Of a DNA stretch of 32,379 nt, positions 1 through 30,505 are shown in pieces. Numbering within the stretch: the stretch's first letter is position 1; the number at the start of each line of letters is the position of its first letter. Source of the DNA: a virus (Duplodnaviria > Heunggongvirae > Uroviricota > Caudoviricetes); the IMG/VR virus record IMGVR_UViG_3300027861_000012, positions 1 to 32,379 of that record; one strand, 5' to 3'. A program made the position numbers and the translations under genes. A model generated the notes under the pieces. That model saw only the letters and a program-made list of their open reading frames with translations, ran no database searches and was not told the origin of the DNA.

Positions 1-340
1 CGGCTCGGCCGCCACGACGGGTTCCGGTTCGACTACCGGCTCGGGCTCCACGACGGGTTCCGGTTCGACTACCGGCTCGGGCTCCACGACGGGTTCCGGT
101 TCGACTACCGGCTCGGGCTCCGAAACTGGGTCGGGCTCTGAAACTGGGTCAGGCTCAGCAACGGGTTCCGGCTCCATGACCGGTTCAGGCTCCACGACCG
201 GTTCGGGCTCCACGACCGGTTCCGGTTCGACTACCGGTTCGGGCTCGACTACCGGTTCGGGCTCCACGACGGGTTCCGGTTCGACTACCGGCTCAGGCTC
301 CACGACGGGTTCCGGTTCGACTACCGGCTCGGGCTCCACA
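1..340 (-). repeat. Coding tandem repeat, 18-bp unit with 36-bp higher-order unit, encoding (EPEPVV)n
   Basis: Plus-strand unit ccacgacgggttccggttcgactaccggctcgggct is repeated, with degenerate units ([18 protein letters not shown]) near 120-180. Confidence 0.95.
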
Positions 341-1686: not shown

Positions 1687-2217
1687 TCAGGCAGAAGTCA
1701 AACGACAAAGTTCCAGAAGTTCTTCCTTCAGCGCTAAATCAACCGATCCTATGGCTTCTGCCAATAGGCGCGATTCTTCCAGGTACATCCGAATATAGGA
1801 GTTGGGCGGGTCCATTGGCATCTCACGGAGATTGTCAATCCGGTCATACATCTTGATGATCTTCGACTCATTCTCCCCGGCAGCAATCGAATGCCGCATG
1901 ATAGTTTTCCGCTGAGCACGCGGCACATCCTTGAAAGTAGGCCCAATAGCCGGGCATGTCGGATCAGTCAAGTCGATGACCATGTTTGTCACGATTTCAC
2001 CGAAACGATCTTCAAGACCCTGGATAGTCACACCTGTGTCTTCAATGGTGTCATGCAAGAAAGCAGCCGCAACCATCTCCTCGGTTGCGTCAATGTGGAC
2101 AGCTACGCGACCAGCCACACGGGCCGGGTGCGAGATATATTCCACACCCGTGTACTTACGTACCTGACCACGATGGGCTTTACGTGCAAACTGGGCAGCT
2201 TCAAGAATCAGGCTCAT
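1687..2217 (-). CDS. RelA/SpoT-type HD-domain hydrolase (small alarmone hydrolase/MESH1-like)
   Basis: AAQFARKAHRGQVRK, YISHP, AAFLHDTIEDT and KMYDRIDNLR match the (p)ppGpp hydrolase HD motifs. Start refined to MSLILE at 2217. Confidence 0.8.
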   Translation of the reverse strand: MSLILEAAQFARKAHRGQVRKYTGVEYISHPARVAGRVAVHIDATEEMVAAAFLHDTIEDTGVTIQGLEDRFGEIVTNMVIDLTDPTCPAIGPTFKDVPRAQRKTIMRHSIAAGENESKIIKMYDRIDNLREMPMDPPNSYIRMYLEESRLLAEAIGSVDLALKEELLELCRLTSA

Positions 2218-3025
2218 CGTTATCTCCAGTGAAAAGGTCAAACATCCCCGGAACATCCAGGTGGTCTTGTAAAGCGTGGCTGCGGCCTACGGTGGTACTC
2301 AGGTCCCACACCGTACAACTTGTTGCTTGCGTTGGACCATTCAGGCCCATAGCCGGTACGCCTCGTGGTCGAAACATCTGCGGATACAATTGCAAGATTG
2401 GGTCCAGGTGGTTACGTGTCACAGTTGTAGTGGCATGTGTAAGGACACGATCATTTGCACGCCCGCCCTCGAAACTGTGATCATCAATGGCAGCCGCCAG
2501 TAACACTAACCTGCGAATCTGCATGTCCTGGAGTGGGAACTGGCGGCCAGCAATCTCGCCTCCAGCCAGCAATTGAACCGTACCTGTGACAATTCGTGCC
2601 CCAAAGCTATGGCCCACTAAGGTAGTTGGCACATCAGCATCATGCAAATAGGTAGCCAGGTAATAGGCTTGGGTATCACAATGGCGAGCCTTCATTCTGG
2701 CATCATTGCGCGGCCCAGGGATTTTGTCGCTAGGCCATGACCAAATCACAAACTGGAATCGCTCTCGATCCTTGAGTCGCTGGTAGATACCCAATCCTGT
2801 TTGAATGGAGTCCTCACGGCTGGTTCGGTTACCATGGGCGAACACAATCAGAGGGCGTGTGGGGATCACGTCGCTACGTGACACCATCTTCCACTCCCTG
2901 TCATGCACCCAGTACCGCATCTCCGTAGTATCGGTTTGGCGAGTCGGAGCTTCCCGTGTACTAATCAGTACCAAGCGAGCTTGGGCCGACGCCGGGAAAC
3001 ACAACAGCAGCAAGACGTACTTCAT
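2201..3025 (-). CDS. Exported alpha/beta hydrolase (DUF900-like esterase/lipase)
   Basis: Signal-peptide-like MKYVLLLLCFPASAQA, oxyanion region FAHG, WSWPS, nucleophile elbow GHSFG, C-terminal HALQDH. Confidence 0.75.
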   Translation of the reverse strand: MKYVLLLLCFPASAQARLVLISTREAPTRQTDTTEMRYWVHDREWKMVSRSDVIPTRPLIVFAHGNRTSREDSIQTGLGIYQRLKDRERFQFVIWSWPSDKIPGPRNDARMKARHCDTQAYYLATYLHDADVPTTLVGHSFGARIVTGTVQLLAGGEIAGRQFPLQDMQIRRLVLLAAAIDDHSFEGGRANDRVLTHATTTVTRNHLDPILQLYPQMFRPRGVPAMGLNGPTQATSCTVWDLSTTVGRSHALQDHLDVPGMFDLFTGDNDEPDS

Positions 3026-3195
3026 TCTCGATGGCACCACCATGAAAGAATGAATGCACCAAGCGAAACAATAGCGAGCCGATGGACCATAGGAGTTTCA
3101 CCAGCTTCAATGTAAACAAGGGCTCCCCAGCCACCTGCCAGTACAGCAACCAATACCAAGAGTGTGGCCAGTAGGGTACGTATTGTGTCATTCAT
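3022..3195 (-). CDS. Small two-TM membrane protein (57 aa)
   Basis: Hand-translated MNDTIRTLLATLLVLVAVLAGGWGALVY...FILSWWCHRE, with an ATGA overlap onto the next gene. Preferred over track ORF 2961..3191. Confidence 0.65.
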   Translation of the reverse strand: MNDTIRTLLATLLVLVAVLAGGWGALVYIEAGETPMVHRLAIVSLGAFILSWWCHRE

Positions 3196-3258
3196 ACTCG
3201 CCTCGCTCAGCCGCTTTGGCCCACTTGCGAAAACAATTACACAGGGCGGTACCGATTC

Positions 3259-3420
3259 CTAAGACGACCATGACACCCCGGAACGCGCAGCGATATCCCA
3301 GCCACCAGCCATTACTGAAATCGCCGCTACAACCCCCGCAATGCAGGCAATGATAAGACAGATGCCAAACAGAATTTCCCAGATCGCGTTCATGTTAAAC
3401 CCCGCAGGTTCGTTACTCAT
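3259..3420 (-). CDS. Small membrane protein, possibly frameshifted (see findings)
   Basis: MSNEPAGFNMNAIWEILFGICLIIACIAGVVAAISV hydrophobic helix. Confidence 0.5.
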   Translation of the reverse strand: MSNEPAGFNMNAIWEILFGICLIIACIAGVVAAISVMAGGWDIAARSGVSWSS

Positions 3421-3526
3421 CGTCCTTCTCCCCGGCTTTCGCCTTAGCATCTAGTTCACGTTGCTCAATAACACCCATCACCATACACAAGGTGAAGATT
3501 AACAGGATACAAGTTAGCTGTATCAT
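3413..3526 (-). CDS. Small membrane protein (37 aa)
   Basis: AGGAGG RBS, then MIQLTCILLIFTLCMVMGVIEQRELDAKAKAGEKDDE. Fills the gap between neighbours. Confidence 0.6.
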   Translation of the reverse strand: MIQLTCILLIFTLCMVMGVIEQRELDAKAKAGEKDDE

Positions 3527-3527
3527 C

Positions 3528-3914
3528 TCAGCAGCCTCCTTCTTGTTTCACGTCCCTAGTGAGCCAGGCGTTGCGACGTACCGCATCTAGCTCGTCTCGG
3601 GTTTCCTGAAGCTTAACCTTCAAGAACTCCATGTATGCAAAGTCGTGTGCCCGCTCCACACAGAACTCGACCGGCACTTCCTTCAGGTAGAGGTACACAA
3701 AGATAGCCGCAGACTTTCGAGCAACGATCTCGTCATCAAAGCTGCCAAGGTCAATGAAACCATGTTTCCAGACAAGCATCCAGGAATGACCGAAGGGATG
3801 CGGTGATTCGTTCCCATGGCCGTCAGTCACAGCGTCACAATCCTCCACCGCGACATCGTTGTCCTGGAGAACTTGTTCGTACTGCTCATCTAGGTAGAAA
3901 CCCAAATCACTCAT
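3528..3914 (-). CDS. Hypothetical protein
   Basis: 128-aa ORF in the operon. Its start lies inside the direct repeat downstream of rtcB. Confidence 0.75.
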   Translation of the reverse strand: MSDLGFYLDEQYEQVLQDNDVAVEDCDAVTDGHGNESPHPFGHSWMLVWKHGFIDLGSFDDEIVARKSAAIFVYLYLKEVPVEFCVERAHDFAYMEFLKVKLQETRDELDAVRRNAWLTRDVKQEGGC

Positions 3915-3918
3915 CCCT
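3891..3918. repeat. Direct repeat, copy downstream of rtcB (28 bp)
   Basis: taggtagaaacccaaatcactcatccct; identical to 5103..5129 except for one extra A. Confidence 0.95.
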
Positions 3919-5079
3919 TCATCCCTTCACCACTGCGATTGGTTGCAAACGTGTTTTGATGTCCACAAGATCCTGTTGGTTCTGCATCACTACTGTAATG
4001 TCCTTGTAGGCTCCGGGTGCCTCATCCAGATCCTTTTCTCCACGGATACTGTGAAGGATACCTGCCATGCTAGCTTGCTCATCTTCCAATGACAAAACTC
4101 GGCAGGCTTGTTTCCGGCCCATCTTCCGTCCGGCACCATGCGAACACGATTTGAAACTATCCGTGTGGCCCAGCCCCGATGTGATGAACGATGATGTCCC
4201 CTGGCTACCCGGAATGATTCCAATCTCCCCCAGCTTCGCTGACGTTGCACCCTTCCGATGAACCATGACATTCTGCCCAAAGTGATGCTCCATGCGAGCG
4301 TAGTTGTGCGCAATGTTGATGGTGTCAGAAGGTGCCACCAACGTGTCGCTAACTTCCTGCAAGACTTCAAGGACTTGTTCCATCATCTCTAGCCGGTTAT
4401 TCAATGCAAATTCGACACAGTATTCCATCTCGTCAATGTAACATCGACCACTCGGTGAATCCAGCGAGAGAAATGCCAGATCCACTGATGTGGGCACACT
4501 GGAATACCACTCCGCATTCAATTGCTTGGCAACCTTGTTGTAGTGGTCGGCGACCTTGTAGCCCAGGTTGCGTGATCCAGAGTGGATCATCACCCACAGG
4601 TCCCCCTCCTCTACATCCAGTTGAAGTTCGATGAAGTGATTGCCGCCACCGAGGGTGCCTAGCGACTTGCGAGCATTGAAATACTCCCTGTCAACAACCG
4701 GCATGTGCCGACCATTCATGTTTGGCATCAAGGTTTCTGGCCGTGCGGCTCGGTGCTTGTCGAAGCCAACGGGAATCCGCTTGCGTATCAAACCGAGAAT
4801 CTTTTTGAGTGTCCACTCGTCGGGGCGTTTCAGTTCCGTTTGTACGGCACACATTCCGCAACCGATATCGACGCCAACAGCATTAGGGACTACGACACCA
4901 CTGGTTGCCATAACACCGCCGATTGGCATCCCGTAGCCCATGTGGGCGTCCGGCATGAGGGCAATATGGCGAAAGGCAAATGGCAGGTTAGCAAGATTAT
5001 GTGCCTGCGTGAGCGCAACATCTTCAAGGTCCCCGAGCCACATCTTGATTGGCAGTTTTTGTGACGTGTCGATTTTCAT
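3919..5079 (-). CDS. rtcB: RtcB family RNA 3'-phosphate/5'-OH ligase
   Basis: MPDAHMGYGMPIGG, VGVDIGCGM, GTLGGGNHFIE, IHSGSRNLG, IAHNY, HRKGAT, PGSQGT, SCSHGAGR, DEAPGAYK. Start refined to MKIDTS with GGGGA RBS. Confidence 0.97.
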   Translation of the reverse strand: MKIDTSQKLPIKMWLGDLEDVALTQAHNLANLPFAFRHIALMPDAHMGYGMPIGGVMATSGVVVPNAVGVDIGCGMCAVQTELKRPDEWTLKKILGLIRKRIPVGFDKHRAARPETLMPNMNGRHMPVVDREYFNARKSLGTLGGGNHFIELQLDVEEGDLWVMIHSGSRNLGYKVADHYNKVAKQLNAEWYSSVPTSVDLAFLSLDSPSGRCYIDEMEYCVEFALNNRLEMMEQVLEVLQEVSDTLVAPSDTINIAHNYARMEHHFGQNVMVHRKGATSAKLGEIGIIPGSQGTSSFITSGLGHTDSFKSCSHGAGRKMGRKQACRVLSLEDEQASMAGILHSIRGEKDLDEAPGAYKDITVVMQNQQDLVDIKTRLQPIAVVKG

Positions 5080-5102
5080 GCGATCCCCATGGATTAACGG
5101 AA

Positions 5103-5129
5103 TAGGTAGAAACCCAATCACTCATCCCT
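5103..5129. repeat. Direct repeat, copy upstream of rtcB (27 bp)
   Basis: taggtagaaacccaatcactcatccct. Confidence 0.95.
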
Positions 5130-5355
5130 GCATCTCTCTGCTGTAGGTTTTGATCTTCTCGTCGGTGTCCGGGTCAAGCATAAATTGGAGTACCAAACGA
5201 TTCAGGATTACATCACAACTGAGACATATTGGTCGCCAGAGTCCACCGTCAGCGCAGGCCGCCCACTGTTGGGATGCTGGCTTCCCGCAGCGAACGCACT
5301 TCATTCGCTTGATCCCAATCTCAGTGTAGGGTTCTGTGCGGCCAGCCCTATCCAT
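5122..5355 (-). CDS. Small Cys-rich, putative zinc-binding protein
   Basis: CVRC...CA...CLSC; likely start MDRAG. Confidence 0.65.
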   Translation of the reverse strand: MDRAGRTEPYTEIGIKRMKCVRCGKPASQQWAACADGGLWRPICLSCDVILNRLVLQFMLDPDTDEKIKTYSREMQG

Positions 5356-5548
5356 CCAACATCTCCCGTATGACGATGTCAACAAAGTCGGTGTTGATCA
5401 AACCCGTCATAGCAAATTCAGTCAATGCATCGTCTGGGATTGATATCTCCCGCCCGTAATGCATCCAAGTGACTTCCTCAATCGGAACTGCATTGATTCG
5501 ATGCCGCTCTTTGATGGCAGCAAATACCTCTTCTACATTGATGATCAT
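5348..5548 (-). CDS. Hypothetical protein
   Basis: 66-aa ORF with overlapping junctions on both sides. Confidence 0.65.
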   Translation of the reverse strand: MIINVEEVFAAIKERHRINAVPIEEVTWMHYGREISIPDDALTEFAMTGLINTDFVDIVIREMLDG

Positions 5549-6198
5549 CGAATCTGCTTCCCCTGAATTAGTCCGAGAGCCTTGGCTTGGCGGATCAACT
5601 TGATCACGATCTGGGCATCATCCACCGCCTTATGCGGAACCGGGCCAGGGATACCAGCACGCTCCATGCACGTATCCATGCTTGGAAGCCGGTTGCCATC
5701 GTCTTCGGGTCGCCAGTAGTACATCACCGGATCAATGGCACGATGCCGAAAGATCACCTTGTTCTCTTTCAGACTGGGGAACCGCTTCAGGAATTGCATA
5801 TCAAATGACGAAAAGTTCTTCCCAGCCGCTGTCTGATGATCACGAAGATCCATACCGTTATCTGTCAAGAAGGCTGCCAACGGCCTCCCGATAGCATCTG
5901 GATGAACGATAGGTACGTACTCCTCGAAGCCCATCTCCAGAGCTTCTTCTTCGTTCTTGGGTCGCATGGCCAGGTACCTGAAGATTTGGCTGTTCAACCA
6001 CAAGGCGTAGGGTTGACCATAGAAGAACGGCACCCCGTCGTTCTCGTCTTCGGAGTCAACATAGCATCGCCATGTGGGAAGCTCTTCAACAGGCGTCTCC
6101 CAATCTGCGATCACGACTCCGATTTCGAGCACCTGGCAATACTTGTCATTCAGCCCGGTGGTTTCCAAATCAATACTCAGGTAACGATGTTCTTTCAT
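5545..6198 (-). CDS. DEDDh 3'-5' exonuclease (oligoribonuclease/DnaQ-like)
   Basis: IDLETTGL (ExoI), GKNFSSFD (ExoII), HKAVDDA (ExoIII). Confidence 0.88.
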   Translation of the reverse strand: MKEHRYLSIDLETTGLNDKYCQVLEIGVVIADWETPVEELPTWRCYVDSEDENDGVPFFYGQPYALWLNSQIFRYLAMRPKNEEEALEMGFEEYVPIVHPDAIGRPLAAFLTDNGMDLRDHQTAAGKNFSSFDMQFLKRFPSLKENKVIFRHRAIDPVMYYWRPEDDGNRLPSMDTCMERAGIPGPVPHKAVDDAQIVIKLIRQAKALGLIQGKQIR

Positions 6199-6584
6199 GG
6201 CTTGATAACTCCCTTGTAACGGTCAATGGCAATTCGTAAAGCGGTCGTCGCATCTTCGACTCTTCGGCTGGAAATATCAGGATCTCCACCACGGACACCC
6301 AGCGTAACGGCACCATGATGTACCTCTGCGGCCCGCCATTCAAAGGCGGCTTCCATCAGTGGGTCAAGACCATCCTCGCTCACGTTGCAACCACATTCCT
6401 TCACCTGGTCCCATAGCAGCGGTACCCCTTCGACATCATCCCAGTCATTGATACCCAGAAACTCACAGTATCCGCTTTCCTGCTCGGGCCGCGTAGGATC
6501 ATAGCCCCAATAGGGACACAGATGATCCTCGGCTTTGTTGTAGCAGTAAATCCCGCTTGGTATCCTGGCAGCTTTGTTACCCAT
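6195..6584 (-). CDS. Hypothetical protein, Cys-rich N-terminal domain plus short helical C-terminal domain
   Basis: GIYCY..CPYW..GYCEFL..LLWDQVKECGCN; the C-terminus resembles the neighbouring ORF. Confidence 0.7.
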   Translation of the reverse strand: MGNKAARIPSGIYCYNKAEDHLCPYWGYDPTRPEQESGYCEFLGINDWDDVEGVPLLWDQVKECGCNVSEDGLDPLMEAAFEWRAAEVHHGAVTLGVRGGDPDISSRRVEDATTALRIAIDRYKGVIKP

Positions 6585-6787
6585 TATGCCGGGTCCTTTC
6601 GGTATGTGTCAATGGCTGCACGTAAATTCTCCAAACAGTCTGTCCGTTGTTTGTCGGCCACCCCGATAGCCGGGAAACTCACGCGATTCAGTCCATTGAG
6701 AAGATTGAGTTCGGCTTCCCGCCACAATACAGCAGCCTCAATAAGGTCAGAAGGGATTTTGGTAATGGCCATACCATTAGTCCTCAT
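6584..6787 (-). CDS. Hypothetical protein
   Basis: 67-aa ORF; LIEAAVLWREAE...LRAAIDTYR. Confidence 0.65.
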   Translation of the reverse strand: MRTNGMAITKIPSDLIEAAVLWREAELNLLNGLNRVSFPAIGVADKQRTDCLENLRAAIDTYRKDPA

Positions 6788-7202
6788 TCAACAGGGTGAT
6801 CTCTTCTAGGTAATCAGGCATCTTACACTCGTTCGCTTTGAACCATCGCATACAGACACGCCGCTCAATGTACCCGATGCCAAGTTCTTTGAGCAATGCA
6901 ACAGGGACGGAGACCGCCTCGGTGCCAACGAATCGCCCGTCTAGGTACACAACGAATTCGTCTTCGCCAACGTTGACCACAGTGATGCGCTTAGTTGGTT
7001 TCCGAAGCACCAGCTTCGGAAACTTCCAGCAAGTATACCGACACGCTGTGGCTCCGATGTCGCTCAAACGATTCAGAAGTGAAACCAGTACGCGGCTGCC
7101 CACATACAGGCCACCCGCAAAGAACACCATGAACCCCAGCAACAAACAAATCTGCGGGAAGATGTCAACAAAGGTTGTCCAGGTCAGGTAATCAAGGGTC
7201 AT
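6777..7202 (-). CDS. Hypothetical membrane protein
   Basis: N-terminal TM helix ICLLLGFMVFFAGGLYVG. Confidence 0.7.
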   Translation of the reverse strand: MTLDYLTWTTFVDIFPQICLLLGFMVFFAGGLYVGSRVLVSLLNRLSDIGATACRYTCWKFPKLVLRKPTKRITVVNVGEDEFVVYLDGRFVGTEAVSVPVALLKELGIGYIERRVCMRWFKANECKMPDYLEEITLLNED

Positions 7203-7531
7203 GATAGCATTCCTTCCAGTTCTTGTTTGAATTCTTCGACAGACGGAGCCTCGGCGGCTTGGATGTTCAAGACCAGCTTGCCATTGCTAAGGTAGAACAC
7301 GTCTGCCCGATAGTACCGTACCAGCAAGCTTTCTTCTAGGTCATTCTTCATACACACCAGGAGTTTGGCCCAGTAAGCATCGAAGTCAGCATACTCTGCC
7401 TCGGATGGGGCGACCATGATCCACAGTTGCTCTGGGGCCAATTGAGGGTCGATTGGTTCAGTGAGCTTCTCGATATTGCAGGCGGCTACGGAAGCATCCA
7501 GCAACGGGGTGTATACGGTTGTGTCAATCAT
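7199..7531 (-). CDS. Hypothetical protein
   Basis: 110-aa acidic ORF with ATGA overlap. Confidence 0.65.
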   Translation of the reverse strand: MIDTTVYTPLLDASVAACNIEKLTEPIDPQLAPEQLWIMVAPSEAEYADFDAYWAKLLVCMKNDLEESLLVRYYRADVFYLSNGKLVLNIQAAEAPSVEEFKQELEGMLS

Positions 7532-7691
7532 CAGCTTCCTCGATTGTTTCCATGATCAGTTTGTTGATGAAGGCATGATAGGCGGGGCGATCCTCAAATG
7601 GGGTCATCTTGAACGGAGGATAGTCGTCCCGATTACCATAGGCCCCATCGATCTTCCGTCGCAAAGCTTCCAGTGTCTCTTTGTTTGTCAT
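7524..7691 (-). CDS. Hypothetical protein (55 aa)
   Basis: Hand-translated MTNKETLEALRRKIDGAYG...IMETIEEADD; fills the gap between neighbours. Confidence 0.6.
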   Translation of the reverse strand: MTNKETLEALRRKIDGAYGNRDDYPPFKMTPFEDRPAYHAFINKLIMETIEEADD

Positions 7692-7700
7692 AGCGGTTCC

Positions 7701-7985
7701 TTATTCAAACGACTTCGGTGTTGGTACATCGTAATGGTCGCCAATAGACAACCCGTAGGCTGCCCGAAACGCCCCAATCAGTGTAAGGTGGTGCCCACAT
7801 TGTTCCCACAACACCGGGGCTGGTTCCCCACAGTCATCGCATGTTTCTCGTTCGTCCGGCTCGACATGGATAAAGCACGCCCAGTGACCACGTAGCCCAG
7901 CCTGGTGGTGCCCGGTGGCAAACTCGTAGCCACAGGCAACCCTGTTCTGGATCAACTCAAATATCGTGGGCTTTGTGTCACTCAT
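7701..7985 (-). CDS. Hypothetical protein with CxxC
   Basis: Likely start MSDTKP; ETCDDCGE. Confidence 0.65.
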   Translation of the reverse strand: MSDTKPTIFELIQNRVACGYEFATGHHQAGLRGHWACFIHVEPDERETCDDCGEPAPVLWEQCGHHLTLIGAFRAAYGLSIGDHYDVPTPKSFE

Positions 7986-8700
7986 TATCCACCTGTATAC
8001 GGCTTTGTGCCACCTTGAAGTAATCCGTGTCCAATTCAATACCAATACCCTGGCGTCCCAACTTCTTGGCCGCTACCATGGCAGTACCACTACCCATACT
8101 AAAGTCCAATACTGTTTGGCCTTTAATAGTGTAGGTTTGAATGAGGTATTCCATTAGGGCCACGGGTTTCTGTGTGGGATGCACCCGTTTCTTTGGGTCC
8201 ACGGCATTCATACGCAGAATGTTCACTGGGTATCGTGTAGTCTCCCCGCCGGGTGCGTTACGCACATTGGTGCCATGCCATAAACGTCCCTTACTAGACC
8301 CTCTTGCACTTTGAGTAGGGACGTGCCCTGTGGTTTTGATCGGGTAATAGAACGAAGCCTTCTTGAAAAAGACAACAATGTCCTCAGTCTTCCGCAACGG
8401 CTGCCGTTTAGCATGGAGGAAGTTAGTTGAGAAATTCTTTTCCCAGACCCAACAGTATTTGAACATCTTCCTGTTTGAAGCAATCAGTGTGGTGGTAAAT
8501 GGCTGACTGGCTGTCATTACTACACCGCCGGTGTGTGAAAGTACACGTTTCAAATGTTCCCACAGCGGTTCCAATGGAATCACGGAATCCCATTTACAAG
8601 CCGTGGACCCGTAGGGTGGGTCAGCCAAGATCATATCAATTGAACCATCTTCGATGTCTGACATCTTCTGAAGACAGTCGCCTTGCATCAATGTGATCAT
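7978..8700 (-). CDS. DNA methyltransferase, N6-adenine/N4-cytosine, beta class
   Basis: GDCL, ILADPPYG (motif IV), HPTQKP, VLDFSMGSGT (motif I), IGIELD. Confidence 0.93.
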   Translation of the reverse strand: MITLMQGDCLQKMSDIEDGSIDMILADPPYGSTACKWDSVIPLEPLWEHLKRVLSHTGGVVMTASQPFTTTLIASNRKMFKYCWVWEKNFSTNFLHAKRQPLRKTEDIVVFFKKASFYYPIKTTGHVPTQSARGSSKGRLWHGTNVRNAPGGETTRYPVNILRMNAVDPKKRVHPTQKPVALMEYLIQTYTIKGQTVLDFSMGSGTAMVAAKKLGRQGIGIELDTDYFKVAQSRIQVDNE

Positions 8701-25503: not shown

Positions 25504-25800
25504 TTATTGGGCCACACATAACTCGCTGTACCGGCAATAACGGTCATGGATTTTACACCAGTCTCGTGACATGGGGTCATCAGTTACGGTACGATTTTGA
25601 CAACTGATTTGTCCGCTGTAGTCTGTCTCGAATTCAGTAGCCTTCATGGACTTGGGTATGTATGGTCGGTTCTCTCGGCAACCGTCTTTCCAATTGGCCA
25701 CAGGTTCAATGTTCTCGCCATGTTGACCACAACTGTAACAGATCCATCCGTCTTCAACGATGGTAACCGGTCGATTGCAATGCCAACATAAAAGGATCAT
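25504..25800 (-). CDS. Cys-rich zinc-finger-like protein
   Basis: CWHC..CYSC..C..C..C..C; ATGA overlap with the Thg1-like gene. Confidence 0.65.
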   Translation of the reverse strand: MILLCWHCNRPVTIVEDGWICYSCGQHGENIEPVANWKDGCRENRPYIPKSMKATEFETDYSGQISCQNRTVTDDPMSRDWCKIHDRYCRYSELCVAQ

Positions 25801-26519
25801 AGCGGCATCACCCTTTCCCAACGGTTGCTAATCTCTCCAAAGCCAGGCAGCACAGCTTCATTGATCTCGATCCCAGATTTGCCAATACCCCAGTCTGATT
25901 TTTTCAAAAGGAAAGTACCATTCTTGGCAACATCATCAAGGTGTGCCCAATTGACACCCTCGTTGTGCAACATCTCATGCATATCGGCTTGAGTCTTTTT
26001 GTGTAGCTGCTTGTGGGAGAAGTGGGCTCCGGCAAGCATCTGCACCGAGTTACGCTTCCAGTCGAGTGCCCGAGCCAGGAAGTAGTTGACTACTTCATCC
26101 TCTGGGATATTGAAAGCACGCGCATCAAAGACCGCCGGGGTCGTTATGCCCATGAGACGCATGTTGCGACCGAAATTTGCAGTCATCAGGGCTGCGGAGA
26201 TGCTCTCCACCTTGTTCTGCACATAACCGAACCAAGCATCCGTATCCAGGTTGTCATAGTCTGTGAGAACAAAACTGGCTTCATCGCTCTGAACATAGCC
26301 CATCTTGAAACCCTGCATCTCGTTGGCTACCCCGATGGCTGCACCTTGCATGGATTCAATGAGCTTGTAATCAAACGGCTTCTTGAACCCATGTTGTTTA
26401 GTGAATGTGTGAAACGCTCGGCCATCGACGCGCACAATCACAGGGGTGCGGCGAGTAAGGAACCGGCGAGCCGGTAACTCGTAGTTACGCTTCATGCGGT
26501 CCATGATGGATTCACTCAT
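25797..26519 (-). CDS. thg1: tRNA(His) guanylyltransferase Thg1-like protein (3'-5' nucleotidyltransferase)
   Basis: IVRVDGRAFHTFT, GYVQSDEASF, FDAR, VNYFLAR..D..RNS; GGAGG RBS. Confidence 0.93.
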   Translation of the reverse strand: MSESIMDRMKRNYELPARRFLTRRTPVIVRVDGRAFHTFTKQHGFKKPFDYKLIESMQGAAIGVANEMQGFKMGYVQSDEASFVLTDYDNLDTDAWFGYVQNKVESISAALMTANFGRNMRLMGITTPAVFDARAFNIPEDEVVNYFLARALDWKRNSVQMLAGAHFSHKQLHKKTQADMHEMLHNEGVNWAHLDDVAKNGTFLLKKSDWGIGKSGIEINEAVLPGFGEISNRWERVMPL

Positions 26520-26794: not shown

Positions 26795-26868
26795 CTCCGG
26801 AGGCTGGACTCGAACCAGCAACCCCACGGGTAACAGCCGTGTACTCTACGCAATTGAGCTACTCCGGA
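26795..26868 (-). tRNA. tRNA-Asn(GTT), non-canonical, CCA not encoded
   Basis: TCCGGAG/CTCCGGA acceptor, GCTC/GAGT D-stem, CACGG-CTGTTAC-CCGTG anticodon arm, GCTGG-TTCGAGT-CCAGC T-arm, discriminator G. Confidence 0.9.
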
Positions 26869-29271: not shown

Positions 29272-29347
29272 TGGAGCCGCCGGTGGGACTCGAACCCACA
29301 ACCTTCGGATTACAAATCCGACGCTCTGCCAATTGAGCTACAGCGGC
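29272..29347 (-). tRNA. tRNA-Thr(TGT) with encoded CCA
   Basis: GCCGCTG/CGGCGGC acceptor, GCTC/GAGC D-stem, TCGGA-TTTGTAA-TCCGA, GTGGG-TTCGAGT-CCCAC, TCCA end. Confidence 0.96.
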
Positions 29348-30139: not shown

Positions 30140-30158
30140 AGTCTTCCCTTGTAGTAAG

Positions 30159-30505
30159 TGGAGGTGGCCGGAATTGAACCGGCGTCCTGTGATAAATTCT
30201 TCGCTTGCGTCTACATGTTTAGTCGTTTTGCTTTACTCGCCCGTAGTCAAACGACGAACTTGTGGGATCGAGTTTTTACTGGACAATCTTTTCCCGTGAC
30301 AACCCAGCAGAGGTCAGTGGGAGCATCCGGAATGGCGACCCATGAAACATCTCTCCGGAAAAGTGTTACATGGGGACTGCTCACGCAGCCGTTGCAAATA
30401 AAGGTTTGGCAGTTAAGCCTTTTGGACGGCTTTTAACGTAGGCCACCGACCAACTACGACATGCAGCAATACGGGTCCCTTACCCAGTCGAAACCTGTCA
30501 CCCCC
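30159..30505 (-). ncRNA. ssrA: tmRNA; tag ORF 30381..30410 = AKPLFATAA*
   Basis: 5' GGGGGTGACAGGTTTCGAC; 3' GACGCCGGTTCAATTCCGGCCACCTCCA; G3-U70 alanyl determinant; pk1-like stems; TAACT-GCC resume context; tag ends in AA. CCA not fully encoded. Confidence 0.93.

Follow-up and report, generated by a model that had tools for sequence, protein, structure and literature searches.

An RNA ligase gene between two copies of a duplicated gene junction in a large seawater phage

Why should a single gene in a tightly packed stretch of a phage genome lie between two nearly identical copies of one gene junction? The question is raised by rtcB, which encodes a 386-aa 3'-phosphate/5'-hydroxyl RNA ligase (3919..5079, minus strand; PF01139, PHROG 1075) in the first 32,379 bases, hereafter the window, of the 177,656-bp IMG/VR record IMGVR_UViG_3300027861_000012, rated complete by CheckV. 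The runs that hold this phage are seawater metagenomes, and the source is a large uncultured seawater phage of about 178 kb. A preliminary description of the locus, made from the sequence alone, had reported a 27/28-bp direct repeat around rtcB and had suggested that the gene was recently gained or could still be excised. In our reading, rtcB was probably inserted by illegitimate recombination into the overlapping stop and start codons of two small genes, here called X and Y, and the 28-bp duplication is the scar of that event.

Reading of the minus strand and a repeat search both recovered the direct repeat, AGGGATGAGTGATT(T)GGGTTTCTACCTA, at 5103-5129 and 3891-3918, one copy on each side of rtcB. 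The upstream copy (direct repeat left, DR-L; 5129..5103, minus strand, 27 nt) reads AGGGATGAGTGATTGGGTTTCTACCTA and the downstream copy (direct repeat right, DR-R; 3918..3891, minus strand, 28 nt) reads AGGGATGAGTGATTTGGGTTTCTACCTA. The two are identical at 27 of 28 positions, the difference being a single T missing from the T-run of DR-L; the repeat search reported the halves separately (D1 and D3), with a longest perfect block of 15 nt. As had been described, the repeat holds the stop of X (..QG*) and the start of Y as an ATGA overlap. Gene X, a 77-aa CxxC...CxxC zinc-ribbon protein of unknown function (5122..5355, minus strand; open reading frame (ORF) list and a gene call in identical contigs), ends ...GAG ATG CAG GGA TGA (EMQG*), with its TGA at 5122-5124 inside DR-L. 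Beyond the last two X codons and this stop, DR-L carries a dead copy of the first seven or eight codons of Y, minus one T. DR-R is the functional start region of Y and directly abuts the rtcB stop: Y (128 aa, function unknown; 3528..3914, minus strand, ORF call) starts at 3914 with ATG AGT GAT TTG GGT TTC TAC CTA (MSDLGFYL), with the ATGA overlap.

That such a pair could be a chance match or a product of assembly is extremely unlikely. Self-BLAST of the genome, taken by itself, gives only E=0.007 for a match of this quality anywhere; yet the copies fall precisely at the two borders of a single gene. The arrangement recurs, together with the indel that frameshifts the duplicated Y start, in three independent assemblies, one from ENA (L003) and two from Logan runs (L004 and L005), which are 99.92-99.95% identical, and contigs of two additional runs span the X/rtcB and rtcB/Y borders. 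An assembly error is thereby excluded. The copies are also orthologous to a junction in related phages, described below.

The repeat is confined to this locus. No third copy of the 27-mer was found in the window at up to three mismatches, nor in 100 shuffles, and a fuzzy search of both strands of the whole 177,656-bp genome returned the two known copies only. Self-BLAST of the genome revealed no other gene bracketed by such a repeat; the remaining repeat pairs were tandem arrays within large ORFs, fragments of tRNAs or repeats internal to genes. The predicted stability of RNA folds in both repeat regions was not above that of shuffles, and no dyad symmetry was found in the 28-mer.

The origin of the repeat became apparent from related phages in which the two flanking genes are direct neighbours. 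Through the contigs of the HMMER homologues of Y we reached L022 (Logan ERR10503159), and a second relative, L023, lies at one end of the 156-kb contig Ga0209926_1000001, its DNA being 78-80% identical to that of L022. Both are colinear with the window from 12,228 to 367, over about 12 kb, at 46-75% protein identity; for L022 the values are 62% for the exonuclease upstream of X, 51% for X, 46% for Y and about 65% for the HD_4 protein downstream. Both have the gene order exonuclease-X-Y-HD, with the X stop and Y start overlapping in GGAATGAGCGG and rtcB not at the junction, which reads ...CCG GAA TGA / ATG AGC GGT TTT CAC... in L022 and ...TTG GAA TGA / ATG AGC GGT TTT CAT... in L023. The orthologues occupy the syntenic position (X 51-53% and Y 44-46% identical to the window genes), and those of Y, about 125 aa, begin MSGFHL with an ATGA overlap onto X. 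Since X and Y are directly adjacent and ATGA-overlapped in these relatives, the 28-mer is the orthologous X/Y junction, the ancestral state in duplicate. The translationally coupled empty site that the preliminary description had predicted is thus present in both relatives.

The same comparison bears on the direction of change. DR-L is non-coding beyond the X stop, yet it lies only one indel from DR-R. As the two copies are near-identical while the X and Y orthologues of the two clades share only about 45-53% of their residues, the duplication is far younger than the clade split, which points to a gain of rtcB in the lineage of the window phage and not to a loss in the other. An ancestral rtcB with its repeats, from which the L022/L023 clade lost the gene by repeat-mediated deletion, would account for the relatives equally neatly, as a deletion between the repeats would leave exactly their junction, and the fully native-like composition of rtcB fits a long residence. 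We consider this course of events improbable, however: an old non-coding duplicate should have decayed beyond recognition over the time in which X and Y diverged, and an insertion event would still be required, merely at an earlier date. Of the earlier claim that rtcB was recently gained, the gain of a single-gene module after the split from the sister clade holds; "recent" applies only in this relative sense, the codon usage being that of resident genes.

The inserted DNA extends from 5102 to 3919 (1,184 bp) and comprises a 23-nt leader followed by the complete rtcB, ending exactly at its stop. The leader, TTCCGTTAATCCATGGGGATCGC (5080..5102, minus strand), lies between DR-L and the rtcB ATG (5079), contains a GGGGA Shine-Dalgarno-like stretch 6 nt 5' of that ATG and is not present at the X/Y junction of L022 and L023. 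It also holds a mini-ORF of four codons (ATG GGG ATC GCA TGA; 5076-5090, minus strand) whose stop overlaps the rtcB start as ATGA. This may be the tail of the gene upstream of rtcB in the donor, in which case rtcB would have been translationally coupled there too. A Pfam scan identified rtcB as the only gene between the repeats, in line with the earlier statement that no integrase or transposase lies inside; none was found among ten neighbouring genes scanned either, and no terminal inverted repeats were found at the ends of the cassette.

Judging from its alignments, the enzyme is full length and apparently intact. The PF01139 match scores 362.7 bits against a cut-off of 27 and reaches the profile end (426/426), and the PHROG 1075 match has E=8e-123. 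In the alignment to the RtcB of P. horikoshii (1uc2), the motifs MPDxHxGYG, DIxCG, GxGNHF, HxGSR, AHN and HGAGR are all kept, with the metal-binding residues and the GMP-accepting histidine conserved, and the alignment extends to the C-terminal KG. The start MKIDTSQ agrees with the N-termini of homologues. Its expected substrates are broken RNAs with 2',3'-cyclic or 3'-phosphate and 5'-OH ends, for example tRNAs cut by host anticodon nucleases, which it would seal.

As to how the gene is expressed, promoter- and terminator-like sites are not commoner in the cassette than in shuffles. Only one promoter-like site was found on the minus strand between the repeats; at 4095-4067 it falls within rtcB, towards the 3' end of the coding sequence, and there was none upstream of the rtcB start, the leader included. 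We suppose that rtcB shares the transcript of the operon and that its translation begins at its own ATG (5079). Other phage-like contigs encode the nearest RtcB proteins (65-78% identity); since these genes lie among unrelated neighbours and lack flanking repeats, rtcB evidently passes between phages as a single unit.

These observations can be joined in a simple scheme. In the ancestor, the small genes X and Y would have been joined by an ATGA stop/start overlap. A foreign piece of 1,184 bp, made up of the leader with its own ribosome-binding site and the full rtcB, would have entered 20 nt into Y by illegitimate recombination, non-homologous or at the level of microhomology, through a template switch or end joining. 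Because the return joint would have fallen 28 nt upstream of the entry joint, the junction was duplicated: the upstream copy would retain the X stop, the downstream copy the ribosome site and start of Y, and the redundant Y start in the upstream copy would later have lost one T. A gene can enter an overlapping junction and leave both neighbours intact only if that junction is duplicated. As X and Y overlap and only a junction-duplicating event spares both, selection would keep such products.

The preliminary description had also noted an 8-bp tandem and taken it to mark the rtcB stop. The tandem is present, as AGGGATGA x2 on the minus strand (TCATCCCT x2 on the plus strand; 3911..3926), and its units have separate origins. 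The first unit (3919-3926) consists of the final rtcB codons, (A)AG GGA TGA, of a gene that ends ...GTG GTG AAG GGA TGA, and the second (3911-3918) is formed by the opening 8 nt of DR-R. The closest RtcBs (75-78% identity; L017, L019 and L020) all end ...AVVKG-stop, as GTGAAAGGATAA, GTGAAGGGGTAG and GTGAAAGGGTAA, and the PDB chain of P. horikoshii RtcB has the C-terminus ...VAKG. Because the close homologues all end VKG-stop, the first unit is the native K-G-stop of rtcB abutting the duplicated junction, and no separate signal. Given the K-G-stop constraint, we estimate the chance of its identity with the junction at about 1 in 24.

Several points weigh against an insertion of this kind. The rtcB gene shows no sign of foreign origin: with a GC content of 0.523, a GC content at third codon positions (GC3) of 0.589 and a codon adaptation index (CAI) of 0.803, against a genome CAI of 0.800 +/- 0.023, it is indistinguishable from resident genes, so that either the donor was similar in composition or rtcB has had time to adapt. 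The comparison rests on one sister clade, and no closer or intermediate relatives were found in IMG/VR, JGI metagenome contigs or the protein collections searched. Annealing of microhomology would predict a single copy of the 8-mer at the joint, where two are present; as a joining route, annealing on the 8-mer was set aside as unproven. Finally, we infer the recombination mechanism from the scar alone.

The searches for relatives covered both proteins and DNA. Scans of IMG/VR with Y, X, the exonuclease and the DUF900 protein downstream of Y gave only 38-53% matches without synteny, and a DNA search in distant mode with window positions 3000-7000 against 50,697 phage records gave short RtcB matches only, and no relatives.

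Is the locus still active? According to the preliminary description, recombination between the repeats would excise rtcB as a 1.2-kb circle, restoring X-Y, or amplify it in tandem, with the population gaining or dropping RtcB under tRNA-nuclease pressure. Direct repeats in the same orientation do allow deletion or duplication in principle, and if the exchange fell within the 14-nt block on the X side of the indel, the X/Y junction would be rebuilt intact, as it is in L022 and L023. There is also a precedent in the PeSL-flanked ORFs of T4-type phages that form mini-circles (PMC2839356). The read sets of four seawater runs were represented by their Logan contigs, which span both occupied junctions and in which rare variants are invisible. 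All conspecific contigs reaching the site, from at least six samples, carry rtcB; they include L006 and L007, both short, and a JGI contig in which Y is preceded by the 4-nt spacing of the rtcB type. No contig of the four runs joins across rtcB, within the limit just given, and the predicted empty junction, sought as an exact match in IMG/VR, gave 0 matches. Perfect homology is limited to 14-15 bp, an exchange on the Y side of the indel would put Y out of frame, and a motif in two copies is not a dispersed recombination signal. Nothing shows that rtcB still jumps out or amplifies; the idea of an excisable unit is unsupported, and we regard an active unit as unlikely.

The PeSL cassettes (Arbiol et al. 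2010, PMC2839356; PMC4122927) are similar in outward form. Like them, the rtcB cassette is a non-essential ORF in a hyperplastic region; it is flanked by direct repeats where translation starts, no recombinase is dedicated to it, and recombination between the flanks could make circles. PeSLs, however, are dispersed promoter-plus-stem-loop motifs found at many intergenic sites, whereas the rtcB repeat exists in two copies only, lacks promoter and stem-loop alike and represents a coding junction duplicated on a single occasion.

A further possibility is that the repeats serve as recombination sites of attL/attR, dif-like or integron-like type, or represent an unusually long target-site duplication, acted on in trans by a recombinase or transposase that moves a non-autonomous cassette. 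At 28 bp the repeats have the size of dif-type sites, the cassette border coincides neatly with the rtcB stop, and the lack of an enzyme inside is as expected for a non-autonomous element. A dif/Xer-like 28-bp site was rejected for want of dyad symmetry. The absence of terminal inverted repeats, of extra copies in 178 kb and of an integrase or transposase among the ten neighbouring genes also speaks against such sites. So does the occurrence of homologous rtcB genes elsewhere without such repeats, and the repeat is simply the orthologous X/Y junction of the relatives. We therefore hold such sites to be very unlikely. As for transposons and insertion sequences, a direct target duplication flanks the insert here as it does there, but it measures 28 bp instead of the usual 2-14 bp, and neither a transposase nor terminal inverted repeats accompany it.

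Were the junction-duplicated rtcB nevertheless a working unit of gain and loss or amplification, or the footprint of an undescribed trans-acting insertion of promoter-less "Shine-Dalgarno plus ORF" cassettes that duplicates a target of about 28 bp, marine phages could trade RNA-repair genes without integrases. To both possibilities together we give only a small chance.

An insertion by illegitimate recombination invites comparison with phage "morons" and with single-gene indels that arise by illegitimate recombination between adjacent conserved genes (the concept of Hendrix and Juhala). Classical morons carry their own promoter and terminator and are often divergent in composition. Like a moron, rtcB is one accessory gene, plausibly beneficial and non-core, between genes that are adjacent in relatives. 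Unlike a moron, its cassette has no promoter or terminator of its own, is compositionally native and has left the target junction duplicated over 28 bp with unusual clarity.

The loss of the T in DR-L also altered the reading frames ahead of rtcB. The duplicated Y ATG (5123-5125) opens an upstream ORF of 33 codons that ends at 5024 inside rtcB; with the lost T put back, by our own reading, it would have 10 codons and stop before the rtcB start. The loss places X and rtcB in one frame, split by the lone TGA at 5122-5124, a match of frames expected by chance in 1/3 of cases. A GTG (5119-5121) directly follows the X TGA (EMQG*VIGFLPIPLIHGDRMKID...). Read-through of the TGA or reinitiation would yield an X-RtcB fusion or an RtcB extended by 14 residues.

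RtcB adds to the other RNA-repair and tRNA genes of the phage. An ATP-dependent RNA ligase (PF09414; L003:11515-12210) is encoded beside a NifU-like gene just past the window start. Within the window are a Thg1-like tRNA-His guanylyltransferase (PHROG 4717, E=1e-73), two tRNAs and a full-length transfer-messenger RNA (tmRNA, 124 bits), a set located at 25797-26519, 26795-26868, 29275-29347 and 30156-30505. A survey of jumbo phages found RtcB alongside Rnl1 and Rnl2 ligases, presumed to be an answer to host RNases (PMC7824862). The present enzyme resembles known phage RtcBs of PHROG 1075 in being full length with its catalytic motifs, in a large phage with an ATP-dependent RNA ligase, tRNAs and other RNA-repair genes; the enzyme is the same and only the visible insertion scar is unusual. 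Phage RtcB and gene gain by illegitimate recombination are both of known kinds, no new mechanism or kind of element is revealed, and the finding is instructive but ordinary. Its value lies in a well-preserved record of a phage acquiring a counter-defence-type gene, in which the target, the boundaries of the insert and the ancestral state are all legible at single-base resolution, and which illustrates that an insertion into an overlapping stop/start must duplicate the junction to be viable.

The genes surrounding rtcB all lie on the minus strand and are packed tightly. Upstream of X are a 66-aa ORF (5348-5548) and a DnaQ-like exonuclease (5545-6198; ORF list and Pfam, PHROG and gene calls); downstream of Y follow three tiny ORFs, the DUF900 hydrolase and the HD_4 protein. 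The locus lies in a variable early/replication region of the phage. Compared with L022, the window has several extra blocks besides rtcB: the 66-aa ORF, the three tiny ORFs with the DUF900 hydrolase (2201-3526), and a stretch at about 7199-8700 with a second N6/N4 methyltransferase. No flanking duplication of at least 10 nt was found at the 66-aa ORF or at the tiny-ORF/DUF900 block. The region behaves as a hyperplastic zone.

X, too, seems to be a small gene that wanders. Homologues at 52-68% identity (L002:2741-2989, L011 and L014) were found in unrelated phage settings, where they follow a DNA polymerase and overlap an ATP-dependent DNA ligase, separate portal from scaffold genes, or come after a T7-type terminase; a position between terminase and portal was also seen. 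Y had no Pfam or PHROG match, and a word-based protein search found it in this phage only. Distant homologues were recovered by an exhaustive HMMER search, which yielded 60 representative relatives, and Y is an undescribed small phage domain with a conserved W..L.W.HG...G motif. Some of its relatives sit within far larger proteins of up to 3,333 aa with 7 matched stretches. The divergence in an alignment of 10 Y sequences was too high for scanning of loci.

The start of the record (window 1-340) and the end of the relative's 156-kb contig (L023:7860-7979) fall inside the same large gene, both at its tandem Pro/Glu-rich repeat array. As both assemblies probably break at this array, the "linear end" of the record is likely an assembly break and not a true terminus. 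Outside the window, at G000:C1:67309-67571, a 260-bp intergenic stretch preceding a 990-aa ORF contains a 34-nt unit with a perfect hairpin, GGTGACTTTT...AAAAGTCACC, in two direct copies and one inverted copy.

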